Both the position numbers and the translations under genes were made by a program. DNA of 64,000 bases from Octopus vulgaris (lineage: Eukaryota): assembly GCA_951406725.2 (NCBI GenBank), contig OX597819.1, forward strand, positions 93,806,001 to 93,870,000, given 5' to 3'. This document shows, piece by piece, positions 21,150 to 63,337 of this stretch. The number at the start of each line of letters is the position of its first letter. Position 1 is the stretch's first letter. Below the pieces are notes generated by a model. That model was not told the DNA's origin and searched no databases. It saw only the letters and a list, made by a program, of their open reading frames with translations.

Positions 21150-22415
21150 CGAGGGGCGTTCAATAAGTAATGCCTCTGACCCACTTGCAGTTGTTTTATC
21201 TAGCTGAAAGTTTGCATGTGCAATTATTGATATCTCTATAGATTAAGTGGAAAATTACAGCTCTGAACTAATTGTGGTTTTCGATTTACAGGTGTTTTAA
21301 CTGAGTCAAGTGTGAAATGGAGCATGTTGAGTGTCGAACAGTGATCTGGTTTTTGTATTTGAAAGGACGCACACCACGGGAGACTTTTGATGAAATGAAA
21401 GTAACTTATGGTGATGATGCCCCATCATATGACCTTGTAAAACGCTGGCCTCGTAAATTCAAACATGGTCGGAACTCTGTGAAAAACAGCTCCCAGATCT
21501 GGTCGCCCCCTTCTGCCATTGATGAGGCATCTGTCTGTCAAGTTGAGGCTGCCATTTTGGAAGATCGACGCATAACTATTCGCCAAATAGCCCATGAGGT
21601 CAAGATTAGTACCGGGTCTGTGGAAACTATCATTCATGACCATTTGCATATGCAAAAGGTGTCTGCCAGATGGATTCCAAGATTGCTCACACCTTTCCAG
21701 AAGCAAAACGCATCGATTGCTCGAGGATGAATTTGGAGATGTGCCAAGAAGATGAGTCAAAATTTTTCAAAAGACTGATCACTATGATCCGAGACCAAAG
21801 CCCAGTCAATGCAGTGGAAGCACCGTGACTCACCTCCTCCAAAGAAGGCAAGGGTGCAGCCCTCTGCTGGCAAGGTCATGCTTACAGTCTTCTGGGACCA
21901 GGACGGAGTAGTGAAGACAGATTTCCTGGCAAAGGGTGCCACAATTACAGGAGTCTATTATGCTTCACTTATGAGGAAATTAAGAGAAGCTATCAAAATC
22001 AAGAGGCGGGGCAAGATCAGCAAAGTCATCCTCCTCCTGCAGGACAACGCTCCGATCCACAACTCGCGTGTTGCCAGATCAGAAGCACAGGCATGCGGCT
22101 ATGAACTCATCCCCCATACCCCCTACTCTCCTGACCTTGCACCCTCTGATTTTCACCTCTTCCCAGCCATGAAGTTGTTTTTGAAAAGAAAGCGTTTCCC
22201 AGATGATGCAGCCTTGATTTCTGAAGTCACGTCGTGGTTGGAGGACCAAGCTGGGGTCTTCTACAAAAACGGTCTTCAGAGCTGCATCAAACGATGGGAG
22301 AAATGCGTAACTCTGGGTGGTTCCTATGTAGAAAAAGGCTAATAACTGTTCCAAGTTTCGTTGCTCTACTGCTATGGGAAGTGGGTCAGGGGCATTACTT
22401 ATTGAACGCCCCTCG
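21150..22415 (+). mobile_element. Near full-length mariner (DD34D) DNA transposon, 1266 bp
   Basis: TIRs cgaggggcgttcaataagtaatgcc(t/c)ctgacccactt at both ends, flanked by TA target duplications, enclosing transposase-coding sequence. Confidence 0.96.
21317..22342 (+). pseudogene. Mariner transposase, frameshifted, first catalytic Asp motif deleted
   Basis: ORFs 21317..21730 and 21809..22342 give an HTH region, WIPRLL (WVPHEL-like), QDNA and YSPDLAPSD. At ~21775-21790 the reading runs KRLIT-YDPETK, so the expected GDETW motif is missing. Confidence 0.9.
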
Positions 22416-29934: not shown

Positions 29935-30600
29935 TTTATTTGTCACAAGGACAAAGGATGAGGGGAACAATACAGAGACAGACATAAAGTGTGGAGGTTT
30001 ACATATAATAATGAAATGATAAAAAAAAATTAAAGCATACACGGTATACACTGGAAAAGAAGGGATATATGCATAGCATACAAAGGCAAAAAGAAATGGG
30101 GGGTAAGGATGATAGAGATGTGGCCCTCCTGATACAGGAACACCTCTAGGGATAATCAAGGAATCCCACTGTCTGAGATTTCCTTGACATCCTAGGAGCA
30201 AGTGCCCTCTCCAATTCTTTCTTTCCGACTCACAGGTCTATACTTAGAGAGGTACCATCCATTCTTGCCATTTTCGCAACTTTCACCCACCTTCCAACAA
30301 ACCCAATCAAGGACAGCACTTCCCTCTGCTCTCTCAATTTCTTTGAGAGCTCTACCAAAGAGGAATGTATCTGGACACTGAATGAAGGCATGCATAATGG
30401 TTTCGTCACTCTGTGCACACTTCAGGCAAGTCCATCTGACAGCATATCAATGCCTGTAGAATTTATCTCAAACTGGTAGCACCCCCTAGTAGCACTGCCA
30501 GTCCAAAGACATCTGGAAATTATCCTTGATAATTCCTGACTGGAAAGTCTTCCAAAACATACTAGCCAGCTCATTCTCGTCAGCACCCATCGTCACACTT
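29935..30600 (-). mobile_element. L1/Tx1-clade LINE 3' end
   Basis: SLDWQCY*GVLPV*DKFYRH..TCLKCAQSDETIMHAFIQCP is a zf-RVT type CCHC motif; followed by a 3' UTR ending in aataaa. Confidence 0.7.
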
Positions 30601-32189: not shown

Positions 32190-33890
32190 ATTTATATGTC
32201 ATTGGCACCAAATGCATGACTTCAAACCACCAAATGCTTCCAAGGCAGATGAAAGAATCAACAACCTCATGTAACATACCCTTAACAAAAATTTTAGTGG
32301 GATTGCAAACAGCACCACATGCAGGTTGATACATTACAACTGTTTTTTTTTTGAGTTGATGATCAAACTAAAATCATCACAGAGTCAAATGCAGATACAA
32401 GAGATTACAGACTTGTTTCAGAATGACTGACAAGATCACAATCGTCAGCATATAAGAATTCCCTAATGAGGGAAGTAAAAAAACTTTCATTTTGAATTTC
32501 AGTCCGGTTAGATTAAAAACATTCCCTGTTGTTTGATATTTTATGTAAATACCCTCCTCAGAGTTTTGAAATGTGTATGATAACACAACAGCAAAGTATA
32601 TTGCAAGGAGGGAGGGTGCATCAAGGTCTCCTTGCTTTACTTCATTTTTCACGGCAAAAGATTCAGAGAGCCTACTTCGAAAATTAACTCTAGCTTTTTC
32701 ATGTCTTGATACAAAGCCCTGATCATGTTTACAAATTTTCCTGGGCAACCTAGTTTCCTTAGAATTAACCACTGAGCATTTCAATTAACAGTATCGAATG
32801 CTTTGTTCAAATCAACAAAGCAATGGTATAGGGCAAGATTCTGTTCAATGGACTTTCCCTGCAGTTATCTTATAGTAGAGATACAATCAGCTATGCCCTT
32901 GGAGGAGCAAAAACCACATTAAGACTTAGACACCATATTTGGAACTATGAAGGTATTTAAACATTCTAATAGATTGTGGGCTGGTACCTTTCCAACCACA
33001 GAGAAAAAACCGAAATCCCACGAAAATTACCACACAGATCCTTTGGCCCCGATTTATACAAAGAGACTAAAATGGCATCAATCCAGTCTTGAGACACTAT
33101 CTCAGTTCTCCAACTGTGACAAATTAATATATTTAAGAGTTCAAACATTTTGTCACCTCCATATTTCAAGACGTCTGCACAGATTCCATCAGACCCTGGA
33201 GACTTATTGTTATTCAGCTTATTCACAGCTAAATAAATGTCATTTAGAGTTGTTTCAAATGCTATCTCCTCTATAACTGGAAGGTGTTTGATTTTTTCCT
33301 ATCATTCTCATGTCAGTGGATGATGGTCTATTTGAAAGTGCAGAAAAATGTTCTACCCAGCACTTATGAATTGAAGCGGTGTCAGTCAGCAGCAAACGTC
33401 TATTTGCTGTAATCACTGGAGATATTGAAGAAGATTTGGGGCCATATACCTCCATAACATAAAAGTACAAACCCTTGGTGTCATTTCTATAAGCTGCTTC
33501 TTCTGCTCCTATTGGTCTATCATTCCACCATTCCTGTTTAATTTTCCTTAGAGCAGTCTGCATTTTCCCTTTCAGCTTTCTGTAGGCTTCATTTAAGTTG
33601 AGGTTCAAACACTGAGAAAGAAAGATATTGCCTAAGTTTTATTTTTCTAAAAGTAGATCATGAATTTCTGCTGATTTGTCTGAGAATCAGTCACTGGACT
33701 TACATGATTTAAATCCCACTGACCAACTTGCAGTCTGAAATACTTTTATTTTGAAATCTCCACATAAATTGTTTGCATCAAGATTGATACTTTCTATAGC
33801 ATTGGAGAATCTTTGTGAGCTACTTGGTAATTTGAAGTTTGCAACATTTTTGGGTACCTTACAGCCAATTTCCGACACAGAGTAGTTCAT
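32190..33890 (-). pseudogene. RTE-clade LINE reverse transcriptase fragment
   Basis: NKLNNNKSPGSDGICADVLKYGG..DWIDAILVSLYK..CGNFRGIS, FVDLNKAFDTVN, SESFAVKNEVKQGD..APSLLAIYF and LYADD; frameshifted. Confidence 0.9.
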
Positions 33891-48148: not shown

Positions 48149-48392
48149 TATGTAATATGTATTTACATGAATATATATAACATATAGTTTTAAAATTTAC
48201 TATTTCATCTGAAAAGCTTGCTATGTCAATATAATCACTCATGTTATTATCTAAATGTACATACTTGCATGTTGAATTAAGAAAAATGAAAAAAAGATAT
48301 CATAATAACAAAGCATTTAGTAGAAACGTTTTCGCTGTGTTCTGCTACACATACTTATTGTCTCTTTTTCTTCTTTTTTCTTTTCTTTCCAG

Positions 48393-48564
48393 GTATGCGG
48401 ATATTGGTGATGCTGTTGCTCGACACACTCCCCATGTTGGGAAATGTACTTCTGCTTTGTTTTTTTGTATTTTTTATTTTTGGAATTATTGGTGTACAGT
48501 TATGGGCTGGTGTGCTCCGAAATCGTTGTTTCTTAAACCTTAGTGCAAATATATCGGTTCCTTC
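48393..48564 (+). CDS. Cav3 (CACNA1G/H/I ortholog): Internal exon of voltage-dependent T-type calcium channel alpha-1 subunit (Cav3), domain I S4-S5 linker, S5 and start of extracellular turret
   Basis: A long polypyrimidine tract and ccag acceptor (AG at 48391-48392) precede it and a gtaagt donor follows (48565). Manual translation, phase 1 in and phase 2 out: (S)[56 protein letters not shown](S). This is near-identical to the vertebrate Cav3 segment [47 protein letters not shown]. The supplied ORF 48241..48543 is in a different frame. Confidence 0.97.
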
Positions 48565-48900
48565 GTAAGTACTTTTACTTTTACTCTTTCGTTTCTATAT
48601 TTTTTTTTTCACAAAATTACTCTCTCTTTTCATTTTCATTTTGTTTGTCTCATCATGATTTTCTTTATCATTATTTTTGCCTTTAAATGTAGATCTTTAT
48701 TACATTCTCAGAATACCACTGAAAAATATGCTTCAATTCCTTTCCATTCTATGACACAATCAAAATAAGCACAGGTATTGTGTGTAGTAAGAAGTTTGCT
48801 TCTCAACCACATGGTTCTGGGTCCAGTTTTACTCTGTTTCATCTTGGAGAAGTGTCTTCTATTACAGCCTTGAGCCAACCAAAGCCTCATGAGTGGATGT

Positions 48901-49422: not shown

Positions 49423-49703
49423 TAGTATGGAGGTTTAGTTCACAGGTGATCTAAATGATTAGGTATGTTAGGTAAGTACTGTAACGGATTACTACGGCTC
49501 CAAGATTACAGCCGAGACAGTAGTTATGGAGCCATTGCAGATTTCCAATTCAGCGGATATATAATTGTTAAAGAACACCACAAACATTAAGGCAAGACAA
49601 ACATCTCATTATTACTATAGGAAGTTTTTTCCAAAATAATACTGTATACAACTTGAGATGTTTGCCTTGCCTTAATGTTTGTTGTCCTCTTTAACAATTA
49701 TAT
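49423..49703. mobile_element. Second copy of the 13.9-kb PLE-type repeat, in inverted (fold-back) configuration
   Basis: 49423-49608 is the reverse complement of ~13950-14133, and 49621-49703 is a direct copy of ~13916-14000. Together they form a ~50-bp-arm inverted repeat. Confidence 0.65.
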
Positions 49704-53121: not shown

Positions 53122-54946
53122 TATATACATATATATATATACATATATATACACATATATATACATATACATATGTGTGTGTGTGTGTGTGCATGTGTAG
53201 TTTTTGTAGATACATTGTATCATTTTGTATATATATATATTTGTATATGTATGGATATCATATACATATTTGTATACAAAATGCAATGGTGTTCTTACTG
53301 TTAACAAGTATTGTTATCTAAGCCAAAAAGAATGCTTTTGCAACAATTTCATCTTGTGTGTATGTGTGTGTGTGTGTGTTTGTGTGCGTGTGCATGTTTG
53401 TGCATGTGTGTGTAACCTTCACTTTTAACTACGCAAATAGTTTCTTCTGATATGTTAAGGCCCACAAACACACAAATGCTTACTCTTGCACATACATGCA
53501 TACACACACACATAAATATATATGTATGTATGTGTGTGTGTGTGTGCGTGTGTGTATATATGTACTTGCTTTACAATTCAAAGATTTTAGTAACATGCTC
53601 AAAACCATTCAGATCATAGATTATATGTAAAGACTTTGTATTAATTAATTTTCTTCATATTTGCATATTTAGATGTATTTAAACATCTAAGTGGATGTAT
53701 GTGTCCCCATCTCTGTTTTTTTTTTTTTCATCTTGTACTCCAGTGGCCTCTACTCTGCAGAGATAGCAGAATATATGTCACACTTTCATATACAAATACT
53801 TTAGAATCTCTCATCCTCTCATCATCCATATTTTACCTACCATCTACCACCAGTCCTTACATTGATCACTTCATCTAGTGGTTCCACCACAGAACAGTAT
53901 CCCATTTGGAATTTCCTCCCTCCCCTTGTTTTTCCTGCAACCATCAACTTGTACTTTGTTCAAGAGAAGCATTAACTGTATTAGTTGCACCAATCTTGCA
54001 AGCCCTATGAAGGATACTGCTCCTTTGCTCTAGATGAAACTGTAGTATAAAAAAAATACACTCACACACATAATGAAACTATTTTCTATGGATTTGCTAG
54101 TAAGGCAGTGAATACATGATATGTCAGGTTAACGACCAATCAGTTTATTGATTCAATCAGAAAGTTACAGCTGCCATTAGTCTGTATTTTCCCTTGGTTG
54201 GAACTCTTCCAGATATTTCAAAGCAAACAAACAAAAACCACCTCTTTCCCCTGGTTTAAAGATCTTCCTTTTCTGATTTCATCTTCTGCTTTCCAAACAT
54301 GTACAAATAGATTTATTTGTCTTCATAAATAGTTCACTAAACACAATATTGTTTTGTAATTAAACAAAGAAAATGATCTAACTTCTACTTAGAAACTTTA
54401 TCACATTTTATATCTTTTAAATTATACATTTGATTTACGTATTAAACTTGAGAAAGCAATTGAGTGGTAATAAGAAGTAGAAATTAAAATATTATAACAC
54501 AGTGTAAGCAAGAGAATTGCTTTCATTCATTTAGATATAGAATGCACATTATTAAAAGAAAAAAAGCTGATAAAAGAAGGCGATATATTGGCTTTACAGC
54601 CTGTCTGTGATGGCATAGGGACAACTAACATTATGCCAGGAGTCCACCCATAGCATTGAAGAAAAGGATATTTGCTGCAGTTAAGATTGCATCTACAGAC
54701 ATCATTGAACTGATAATGAATGCATCTTAACAGTCTGTAGTTATTCTTATCCAACACTCAATAAAAGGAAAATGCGCTCGAATAGAAGTGATAAAATCTT
54801 TAAAATTTCATGTGAGAAGAAAGTGGTTTTTTGAGATACTCTGTTTTTCTTTCAATTACTTTAAATATAACCAAGAATTTAGTAAAATAACTTAGTTATC
54901 ATTCAGCTAGTGTTAGGAACATAAATTGTGGTAACAAAAGGGTTAA

Positions 54947-55166
54947 CCCTTTTGTTATCAACCCGGCTGAAACCGGCTCTGGCTCTATGTACAAATGTCT
55001 TGTTTTCATAAGTTTTGAATTAAAATCTTCCACCAAATCTTAGTCACAATTTATGTTCCTAACACTAGCTGAATGATAACTAAGTTATTTTACTAAATTC
55101 TTGGTTATATTTAAAGTAATTGAAAGAAAAACAGAGTATCTCAAAATAAATACAGTAATGACAGGG
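54947..55166. mobile_element. piggyBac-type (TTAA) MITE
   Basis: TTAA|CCCT...AGGG|TTAA termini; second copy in the opposite orientation at ~62104-62313. Confidence 0.75.
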
Positions 55167-59785: not shown

Positions 59786-60135
59786 TTCATCATCATCATC
59801 ATCGTTTAACGTCTGCTTTCCATGCTAGCATGGGTTGGACGGTTCAACTGGGGTCTGGCAAGCCCGAAGGCTGCACCAGGCCAGTCAGATCTGGCAGTGT
59901 TTCTACAGCTTGATGCCCTTCCTAACGCCAACCACTCCGAGAGTGTAGTGGGTGATTTTATGTGCCACCGACACAGGTGCCAGATGAGGCTGGCAGACGG
60001 CCACGCTCGGATGGTGTTTTTTATGTGCCACCGACACAGGTGCCAGACGAGGCTGGCAGACGGCCACGCTCGGATGGTGTTTTCTTATGTGTCACTGACA
60101 CAGGTGCCAGACAAGGCTGGCGAACGGCCAAACGA
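59786..60135 (-). mobile_element. SINE family D with an RTE-type 3' tail (ggacgttaaacgatgatgatg). Other copies at ~17537-17710 and 20761-20975
   Basis: (cat)n-cgtttaacgtc.gctttccatgct.gcatgggttggacgg..gatgcccttcctaa.gccaaccactcc is shared between copies; this copy has an internal 63-64-bp tandem repeat. Confidence 0.8.
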
Positions 60136-60717
60136 GTCATCCCTGGTGGGATTAAATATATATATATATATGTGTATGTATGGAGGCCTTTGTCATTTCT
60201 AAGCATTGAATTGGAAGAATCATTATAGTATCAGACAAAAATTCCTTGCAGTATTTATTCCAGCTCTTTGGTTTCTGACTTCAAATCCAACTAAACTGAA
60301 TTACTTTGCTTTTCAACCTTCCAAGAGTTGATAAATAAAGTACAAGTGGTACCTCAGCTGGTGAGCTAGCATAAGGGTATAAACATAAATCAGGTACCCA
60401 GTTTAATACTGCCACCTGATCTTTGGGAAAATTCGCTATTTTGCATTCAGGCAAGGTCACCTTGTTTAATAATACCTTCTGTTTCACCACCTCCCAGTCT
60501 TAGAAAATCAAGGATTAAAAAAAAACATGGGCAATTATGTACATTATTTATATTTGATGGAGTGGTTGTATACTGTCAACATAATGTGACATCCCATGTG
60601 GGAATTACACCACCGCTGTTTAGCCCTAGGAAGCATCGACGCTTCCTGTCGGCTTTGACACATTTCCTGTGTCTTTATATTTGTGAAGGGGAGGCAAGCA
60701 CCCCCACCAGCCAAGAT

Positions 60718-60776
60718 TCACACCTGAGGACATGCATGTTTCTGGGTCTTAACCCGTCATCAGCCCAGGATAGTGA
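60718..60776 (-). ncRNA. Minimal type I hammerhead ribozyme (PLE-type), antisense to Cav3
   Basis: Reverse complement reads cctggg-CTGATGA-c-gggt-taag-accc-a-GAAA-catgcatg-TC-ctcagg, with a perfect 4-bp stem II. Confidence 0.82.
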
Positions 60777-60875
60777 GATCTGCTGACTGAGGTGCCTGTC
60801 CAGCCTTCACAAACATATATATTTACAGTGAAATCTATTCTGTGAAGGCTGGACAGGCACCTCAGTCAGCAGATC

Positions 60876-60934
60876 TCACTATCCTGGGCTGATGACAGGT
60901 TAAGACCCAGAAACATGCATGTCCTCAGGTGTGA
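60876..60934 (+). ncRNA. Minimal type I hammerhead ribozyme (PLE-type), sense to Cav3
   Basis: tcactatcctggg-CTGATGA-caggttaagaccca-GAAA-catgcatg-TC-ctcaggtgtga. Core boxes intact; stem I cctggg/ctcagg; palindromic stem III acatgcatgt; predicted cleavage after GUC at 60923. Stem II has one extra mismatch. Confidence 0.8.
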
Positions 60935-61474
60935 ATCTTGGCTGGTGGGGGTGCTTGCCTCCCCGTCACAAATATAAGGACACAGGAAATGTGTCAAAGC
61001 CGACAGGAAGCGTCGATGCTTCCTAGGGCTAAACAGCAGTGGTGTAATTCCCATACAGGACTGTCATGTTATGTTGACATTATACAACCACTCTATCGCT
61101 CCACCACCACTCATGTCTCTTTAAGACATTTAGAAATTTAATATTTCTAATTATATTTGATGGATATTTGTCAAATGTGAATAACGTAAATAATGATCGT
61201 TAATTTTATCTTAGAATCTTTGAGAAACAATTTCCTTATAGTGTTTCCCAAACCAAATACATTATTATCTCTTAGCTTTTATCATTTTGGATTGCAGCCA
61301 TGCTGGAGCACCACCTTCAAGAGTTTTGGTCAGACAAAGCAATCCCAGTACTTAAGTTTTGCTTTTGTTTTTTAATAAATCTCTTTTGCTGAATCATTAA
61401 GTAACAGGGATGTAAACAAACCAACACCAGTTATCAACCAGTAGGCGGTGGTTGACAAACACAGACAAAAATAA

Positions 61475-61511
<37 letters not shown>

Positions 61512-62099
61512 GTTTCAAATTTACAGCAAACAAAAGACAAACACAAGTGAAGGAACAACAAACAGGTGTATTAGCTTAACACTCAGGAAAAATGGAAGAG
61601 TCTTTTATGTTTTGAGCTTATGCTCTTTGACAGAAAAGATTAATAGGAAAAAAACGGAGAGAGAATGAAAAAAAACAGAGGAAAAAATATGTAAAAATAC
61701 ACAAACATACACACACACACACACATGCATACACAACAAGTTTCCAGAAGGTTTCTGTCTACCAAATTCACTCACCGATATTAGTTGGCCTGGGGCTATA
61801 GCAAAAGACACTTGGCCAAGGAACCATGCAATAGGTCTGAACTCAATACCACAATGTCACAAAGCAAGCTTCTTAACTGCAAAGCTATGCCTGCAACTGT
61901 AATATTTTAATTTCATATTTCTCAATCTGTAGTTCTAAATTCAAATCTCACCAAGGTCTATTTTCACCTTTCATCCATCTCTTCAGGGTTAATAAAACAA
62001 ACACAGATACGATTGTAATGTATTACTCTGTGCATTTTTTTTTTCTTTATTCTTTTAGTTACATTAGGCATTGGACTGCAGTCATGCTGAGTCACTGCT

Positions 62100-62317
62100 T
62101 TAACCCTTTTGTAACCATATTTGTTTTGAAATGCTCCGTGTTTCCCTCAATTGATTTTCAATATAACAAAGAATTTAGTAAAATAACTTAGTTATCATAA
62201 AGCTGGTATTAAGAATATAAATTTGGTGGAAGATTTTAATTCAAAACTTATGAAAACAAGACATTTGTACTACAGAGCCAGAGGCAATTTCAGCCGGATT
62301 GGTATCGAAATAGTTAA
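62100..62317. mobile_element. piggyBac-type (TTAA) MITE, second copy, inserted in a SINE
   Basis: ttaacccttttgtaacc...ggtatcgaaatagttaa; internal sequence is the reverse complement of 54947-55166. Confidence 0.7.
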
Positions 62318-63268
62318 AGGATTTAGTCAAATAATTATCTCCACTACTAATTCTGTGTCTGATAAATTATTCTAACGATTTCCTTTTGCCAGAGATGACT
62401 TGGAAGTTGTTGCTCTTTGATTACTACTGCAAACAGCAGTAGGTTTCTTCAGTTGAATACACGTCGTTGATTGGTTAAAATTACCCAAATACGACAACTT
62501 TAACACGAAATAACTTCTAAAGTACGAAATTTTGTCCAAAATGTTGAAAATAAACCATGATCAGCATGAGAAATAACACCAGTATACGAAGTTTTAAACT
62601 GTTTAGTTAAAAAAATATAATTAAAATCTATGTGAGCCAAACTGAAGAGATCCAAAGGATTTAAGCAAGCCAACATTGATTGTTAAGTGAGGGTAGAGGG
62701 AGAAACACAAAGACACACCGATACAAATATTTATGTATGCGATGAGTTTTCACACAGTTTCTGTCTACCACATTCATCTATAAAGCATTGGTCATCCAGT
62801 TATAGTAGAAAGCATTGTCCAAGCTGTTGCTGTGCAGTAGGAATGAAGAGGCCAAAACCACATGATTGTGAAATAATCTTCACGACCACAGAGCCATATG
62901 CCTGTCTGTGCCTCTACCCTGCCTAGGAAATCAATGTTCGTTCAGAAGAAGGACATGAAATCGGCAACTACTGTGAATTACTTGAACGTGACTAATCAAC
63001 ATGCACATACTTAGCCTTGCCTGTATCCATTCTGCCTTCCATCCAGCTAATCCAGTGAAGTTTACTTCAGTGAAAGATTGTGTCAAGTGTTAATTTTTGT
63101 TCATAAAAGTGAAACCTCTTAAAAGAACTTGAAACACTAATAATTTTTGAATTTCTCATGTCTAAGATGTATCAATTCAATTTCAAGTGACTTGATGCTT
63201 TTGTATTTCTGTTTTGATTTGGGTTCTTTTTTTTTTTGCATTATTTTTGTAGTGGGGTTAGGAATTGA

Positions 63269-63337
63269 TTTTATATTGAATTGATTTAGTCCCGATAAAG
63301 AATTTTATATTAAATTGATTTAGTCCCGATAAAGAAT
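63269..63337 (+). repeat. ~34-bp tandem duplication
   Basis: ttttatatt(g/a)aattgatttagtcccgataaagaa occurs twice. Confidence 0.85.

Follow-up and report, generated by a model that had tools for sequence, protein, structure and literature searches.

Head-to-head copies of a high-copy hammerhead repeat in a probable Cav3 intron of Octopus vulgaris, most likely a Penelope-like insertion

Does a long palindrome carrying one hammerhead ribozyme motif on each strand, downstream of a calcium-channel exon in Octopus vulgaris, act on the transcript of its host gene, or is it simply the trace of a mobile element? The palindrome (ca. 540 bases) is the strongest inverted match within the window, i.e., the whole 64-kb stretch of contig OX597819.1 that was analysed. 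The first-pass annotation had described near-perfect arms of about 250 bp, a 29-nt loop and a flanking 14-bp direct repeat, and all three were recovered. In a gapped alignment, the left arm (60556–60811) and right arm (60841–61097) matched at 245 of 257 columns and differed at 12, with a spacer of 29 nt between them (60812–60840). The direct repeat, which is likely a target-site duplication, lies at 60548–60561 and 61151–61164 on the plus strand. No further copy of the element besides the two arms was found in the 64-kb window. As argued below, the palindrome is real, and it most likely marks an ordinary transposon insertion within a calcium-channel intron and not a regulatory switch.

The host gene was identified from a single exon at 48393–48564 (+), which encodes the domain I S4–S5 linker and S5 of Cav3 (T-type calcium channel) and is bounded by an AG acceptor (48391–48392) and a GT donor (48565–48566). 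Its best matches were T-type channels, and it was fully covered by proteins of Capitella and Elysia with 91% and 89% identity, respectively. Neither tblastn with six proteins nor profiles derived from 118 proteins detected another Cav3 exon in the 64 kb, although a short divergent exon could escape such searches, and the next conserved Cav3 exons do not lie within the window. As no upstream exon was found in the 48 kb before it (1–48390), the Cav3 intron upstream of 48393 is very long. Judged from sequence, the element most likely lies inside the Cav3 gene, 12 kb downstream of this exon, provided that the gene is intact. The earlier placement in a probable Cav3 intron thus keeps its footing in an exon 12 kb upstream on the same strand, although this is the sole Cav3 exon found in the window.

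The surrounding sequence is rich in repeats. A second palindrome in the same intron (54829–55146) has a predicted perfect outer stem of ca. 108 bp, which encloses a small palindrome with TTAA at its centre; it is 80% similar to 62099–62317 in inverted orientation and resembles a pair of back-to-back piggyBac-type MITEs. A segment 1 kb past the Cav3 exon (49559–49703) is self-inverted with 80% identity over 148 columns. The element is adjoined by a different and still more abundant interspersed repeat (61275–61450), which has inverted relatives elsewhere in the intron. Tandem repeats were found at 59956–60145 (three 63-bp units, the others 98% and 70% similar to the first) and at 63268–63335 (a 34-bp duplication, 97% alike). 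A mariner-type transposase with Pfam HTH_48 and Transposase_1 domains is present in two frames at 21305–22342 (+), and a broken frame at 30192–30446 (−) gave a weak zf-RVT match; the latter and the broken frames at 32377–33638 (−) presumably derive from a LINE reverse transcriptase.

To place the element among its relatives, contigs of four out of 24 listed sequencing runs (X1, X2, X4 and X12, the last only guessed to be RNA) were aligned on 60300–61450. Family contigs were found in all four runs, under three organism labels, and the arms, the spacer and a one-sided tail of 56 bp all belonged to one high-copy repeat family. The tail (61098–61153, +), recognised by contig depth, starts with an AC-rich stretch. 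In X1, depth reached 196,546 in the tail bin (61119–61157) and 13,465 in the spacer bin, against 60 in the flank. Relative to the unique flank, summed contig depth was about 3,300, 2,700 and 7,600 times higher for the tail and about 280, 200 and 780 times higher for the ribozyme in X1, X2 and X4, respectively, ratios that indicate orders of magnitude only and not copy numbers. Towards the 5′ end of the unit depth was lower, which is consistent with truncation or with divergent subfamilies. In X12, family contigs included one over 60706–60840 with two differences; the unique left flank had no depth in this run, which says nothing on this locus.

The extent of the repeat unit was given by an opposite-strand joint between 60840 and 61153, which occurred in three of the four runs (three, two and four contigs in X1, X2 and X4; nine in total). 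It was read as a passage from tail to spacer on the minus strand, since the alternative would need the unique flank to be present at a depth of 902 in X4. Such head-to-tail joints come from a few contigs of other loci, whereas at this locus the copies are inverted. The tail-to-spacer joint leads to an inferred unit of 342 nt with 43.9% GC, comparable to a non-LTR retrozyme or a solo Penelope pseudo-LTR. The minus-strand copy (60556–60840) corresponds to unit positions 1–285, consisting of the spacer and left arm without the tail, and the plus-strand copy (60841–61153) corresponds to positions 30–342, consisting of the right arm and tail. Contig depth and folding both indicate that the spacer (minus strand) is not unrelated DNA but forms the 5′ end of the copy on that strand, and its bases pair into, and lengthen, the long stem of the unit. 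A TATA-like run lies near this 5′ end (60815–60825, −); similar two-way TATA motifs are described for rotifer pseudo-LTRs (PMC3846280).

The unit lacks an ORF: both copies have stop codons in all three sense frames, and no protein relative was found for one antisense frame. It is strongly self-paired compared with shuffled sequences (z = −5.5 for the minus copy and −3.4 for the plus copy). Variants within the family spared predicted pairs at 20 of 24 positions and broke them at four, which is not significant (p = 0.12); this count used 30 of the 40 variant rows listed (of 90), the 10 excluded being in flanks or in one run only. Ends of single contigs near unit positions 284 (X4 record 26) and 309 (X2 record 21) suggest that other family copies vary at their 3′ ends. 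Furthermore, an X1 contig joint at 60750/60902 showed differing sequence around CUGAUGA in a family contig, which suggests that subfamilies differ in helices I and II.

The repeat family is probably uncatalogued. No description of it was found by title and start of abstract, a scope outside which most subscription papers and repeat databases fall, and an O. vulgaris repeat paper counts Penelope-like families without using the words ‘hammerhead’ or ‘ribozyme’. A hammerhead pattern scan returned no loci in viral sequences and 11 loci in metagenomes, none of which was similar to the element at E 0.01 or had three helices by eye.

The geometry of the locus points to a particular mode of insertion. 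The two copies are arranged head to head with both 3′ ends outward and the tail at one side only, and both are unbroken across their own ribozyme cut sites (unit position 112). The target site is AT-rich, and the left end adjoins an AC-rich stretch. The direct repeat is placed asymmetrically, the right copy lying 53 bp past the right arm with its first three bases overlapping the end of the unit, and the last six bases of the left copy show microhomology, as they can pair with the distal end of the right arm too. Direct matches of at least 14 bp turned up in 42 of 4000 random placements; when microsatellite was left out, there were 4 in 3219. An inverted 5′-truncated copy and a one-sided tail of 30–40 bp are typical of Penelope-like elements (PMC8557442), and the rotifer elements combine an inverted copy and tail with duplications of 8–10 bp (PMC3846280). 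The purified Penelope protein of a lizard is reported to nick and extend both strands of AT-rich DNA, to start at two sites in an AC-rich stem-loop bounding the tail, and to act independently of ribozyme cleavage (PMC11167929). Animal retrozymes are likewise described as derived from, or tracking, Penelope pseudo-LTRs in a recent preprint (bioRxiv 10.64898/2026.07.22.740005).

These features were mirrored at our locus, which has an inverted, 5′-truncated head-to-head copy and a tail at one end, although the tail (56–62 bp) is longer than the published 30–40 bp. We therefore regard the element, with a probability of roughly 0.78, as two back-to-back copies of an abundant non-coding hammerhead repeat that were most likely placed by a Penelope-like enzyme in one insertion event and are now likely inert in a large Cav3 intron. 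The enzyme would have nicked both target strands 14 bp apart, and uncleaved (or re-ligated) unit RNA would have been copied from each nick, with priming once at the end of the unit and once about 60 nt inside it. The two copies would then have been joined at the centre, after which the inner 197 bp were presumably homogenised between the arms while the outer 60 bp drifted. The Penelope-like origin proposed by the first-pass annotation gains from the anatomy (inverted copy, one-sided tail and direct repeat) and from the abundance of the family, but its hammerheads do not match the minimal pattern of Penelope ribozymes. Other points also weigh against this reading: no autonomous Penelope partner was identified, and the tail-to-spacer joint comes from nine contigs whose direction is interpreted.

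The same arrangement might have arisen if a single copy had been inserted and later duplicated in inverted form, either through DNA repair by fold-back or through template switching during replication. The distribution of differences between the arms bears on this unlikely alternative, with 3 differences in 197 inner columns and 9 in 60 outer columns (permutation p = 0.0008). As expected from a duplication, the inner arms hardly differ and have alleles off the family majority in common, and the sequence across the spacer shows imperfect self-complementarity. However, the spacer occurs on one arm only and the tail on the other, and both are family sequence. Since each arm has family sequence missing from its partner, neither can be a plain copy of the other. 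A single direct repeat, moreover, frames the whole pair. Departures of the outer arms from the family majority fall at 60591, 60596 and 60598 on the left and at 61057, 61067 and 61080 on the right, while one departure (61053/60599) is common to both arms. This pattern is read as one template with independent drift outside and arm-to-arm conversion inside, although it may instead reflect selection acting on the duplex, or the outer part may stem from a second template.

The arm differences also argue against an artefact of assembly or amplification, a reading that we consider very improbable. None of the listed contigs covers the stretch in full or crosses the right junction, which such an artefact would explain, and none of the joints listed (15 of 174) was a skip joint marking an empty allele. 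In contrast, the 12 arm differences sort against family alleles, the 14-bp direct repeat frames the pair, and one X2 contig starts in the unique left flank and reaches 60589, entering the element 28 bases past this repeat, albeit below the 31-base bridging bar. The X1 left-flank contig breaks off precisely at 60561, as would be expected of a branch, and that of X4 turns unlike past 60522. The right flank (61197–61274) had little or no cover in all four runs, a coverage hole that proves nothing.

A further possibility, which seems quite unlikely, is that the family is a SINE or fold-back element with a hammerhead, mobilised by a LINE or a DNA transposase and not by a Penelope-like element. It gains some plausibility from the window itself, in which mariner and LINE-like remnants occur and the listed frames include no Penelope ORF and no sequence link to one; the element itself contains neither a reverse transcriptase (RT) nor a GIY-YIG ORF. 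On the other hand, the ends of the element are asymmetric, and its 3′ end has no poly(A) or simple repeat. The combination of tail and inverted copy is characteristic of Penelope-like elements (PMC8557442 and PMC3846280), and animal retrozymes track Penelope pseudo-LTRs (bioRxiv 10.64898/2026.07.22.740005). Insertion by a Penelope-like enzyme thus remains the preferred explanation.

Both hammerhead motifs are of type I and retain all invariant core bases (CUGANGA, GAAA and NUH), a 6-bp helix I, which the long stem prolongs in the predicted fold, and a short helix III whose self-complementary (palindromic) sequence agrees with the first-pass annotation. On opposite strands, the two cores are separated by about 125 bp; the window contains four further matches to the bare core motif. 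The minus-strand motif (60723–60769, predicted cut after 60729) is the better copy, and that in the Cav3 sense (60883–60929, +, predicted cut after 60923) is the weaker one. In both copies, a C lies opposite an A next to the core, so that helix II lacks the standard 10.1–11.1 closing pair. Helix II of the minus copy consists of 4 bp closed by this C–A mismatch, and a G-to-A difference at 60897 in the plus copy produces an additional A–C mismatch that leaves only 3 bp. No variants at the C–A bases were seen among the 40 of 90 variant rows listed. Rfam searches did not recover a hammerhead for either copy: no hammerhead model matched at the gathering threshold across the 64 kb, none was among the 36 matches at E ≤ 1, and none matched either 111-nt motif stretch at E ≤ 10. 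Matches to miRNA models on the central hairpin were below the Rfam gathering score and generic, and were discarded. The description of one core-intact hammerhead per strand accordingly holds for the invariant core but was overstated for the motifs as a whole, given the C–A mismatch in both, the second mismatch in the plus copy and the Rfam result. By analogy, a basal helix II mismatch need not be fatal to cleavage, as the axolotl HHR_Amex2, with U–U at the base of helix II, is reported to have reached 22% cleavage within an hour as a monomer, and more as a dimer (PMC7229834).

How the two ribozymes would behave in one transcript was assessed by folding predictions, which consider neither tertiary contacts nor kinetics. 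In these, the plus hammerhead fold cost 5.5 kcal/mol in the isolated arm versus 87 kcal/mol with the mirror arm, and the minus hammerhead 3.9 versus 89 kcal/mol. In either transcript, the arms would zip into one long duplex, so that neither ribozyme would fold and the element RNA would be a passive double-stranded substrate. The earlier proposal that the mirror arm sequesters the sense ribozyme is therefore supported in thermodynamic terms. As a dimer, the minus copy had the double hammerhead as its best fold (−34.9 kcal/mol), whereas for the plus copy the double hammerhead (−27.3 kcal/mol) was less stable than the best fold (−33.3 kcal/mol). The Cav3-sense copy is thus predicted to fold poorly even alone, and the ribozyme muted by the mirror arm would be the weaker copy. 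Furthermore, the pair is inverted, which leaves the sense ribozyme without a same-strand dimer partner.

These predictions bear on a possible co-option, in which A-to-I editing would release the mirror-muted ribozyme and tune the cleavage or splicing of Cav3 pre-mRNA. In favour of it, a Cav3 exon precedes the element on the same strand, folding predictions have the duplex dominate, and around the ribozyme the inner arms show unusual similarity. Nevertheless, we consider such a role highly unlikely, and it is equally hard to credit that selection has kept the near-perfect duplex as an editing-released self-cleavage switch. The sense ribozyme is a damaged copy without a same-strand partner, the barrier of 87 kcal/mol would require very dense editing, and 12 kb separate the element from the nearest known exon. 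In addition, with the other long palindrome (54829–55146) in the same intron, double-stranded RNA is nothing special here. Xenopus retrozymes offer a comparison, as 42–44% of them are intronic and one of nine tested dimers cleaved (bioRxiv 10.64898/2026.07.22.740005). The regulatory reading of the first-pass annotation consequently loses ground, since the sense copy is the more damaged one, its dimer does not fold as a double hammerhead, and the intron holds a second long palindrome. Places with A>G and T>C numbered 13 and 11 in X12 versus 12–13 and 10–12 in the DNA runs, but pooled contigs cannot show editing. No report of an editing-controlled intronic hammerhead palindrome was found by title and start of abstract.

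Amniotes have intronic hammerheads of a different kind, the HH9 and HH10 ribozymes, which PMC6765202 also mentions. These are conserved single copies. The octopus element resembles them in lying in an intron of a host gene, but it differs in belonging to a high-copy repeat and in the damage to its helix II. It is closer to Penelope-like insertion units as described in PMC8557442, PMC3846280 and PMC11167929, with which it shares the head-to-head arrangement, outward 3′ ends, tail at one end, direct repeat, AT-rich target, a repeat that contains a type I hammerhead, and an end point near an AC-rich stretch. Unlike the endonuclease-positive Penelope-like elements of these accounts, it has no RT or GIY-YIG ORF, and its tail measures 56–62 rather than 30–40 bp. 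In Schistosoma mansoni, opposite-strand hammerhead pairs 100–700 bp apart have been attributed to truncated Penelope-like copies (PMC4209133); our motifs are likewise on opposite strands, with their cores about 125 bp apart. The minimal Penelope hammerhead of the same source, which has a helix II of 7–8 bp, an unpaired base after A9 and G10.1–C11.1 before G12 (PMC4209133), is not the motif found here: helix II comprises 3–4 bp, an A stands between the last C and G12 so that no G–C pair lies beside G12, and helix III is full.

The non-LTR retrozymes of metazoans, reported at 350–390 bp in mussel and 330/350 bp in axolotl (PMC7229834), resemble the octopus unit in being non-coding, self-paired and present in high copy, the unit being ca. 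342 bp long with a GC content of 44%. They also share with it a type I hammerhead of canonical size with a palindromic helix III, and the basal mismatch in helix II recalls the U–U of HHR_Amex2, which still cleaves. The unit falls within the ranges that define this group (150–450 bp, GC under 50%, self-paired, type I hammerhead, non-coding), whereas its inverted arrangement at this locus differs from the tandem one of retrozymes in the same source. Opposite-strand hammerhead pairs and the Penelope-like form of insertion have already been published, and the octopus palindrome adds another such pair and, most likely, another such insertion.

If the switch reading were true after all, the locus would represent a natural ribozyme under RNA-editing control in a host gene, a neuronal calcium channel. 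What the locus points to is a high-copy hammerhead repeat family for which our searches returned no description. An ORF-less, retrozyme-like unit bearing a Penelope insertion signature would fit the idea that Penelope enzymes move retrozymes and do so by copying uncleaved RNA.
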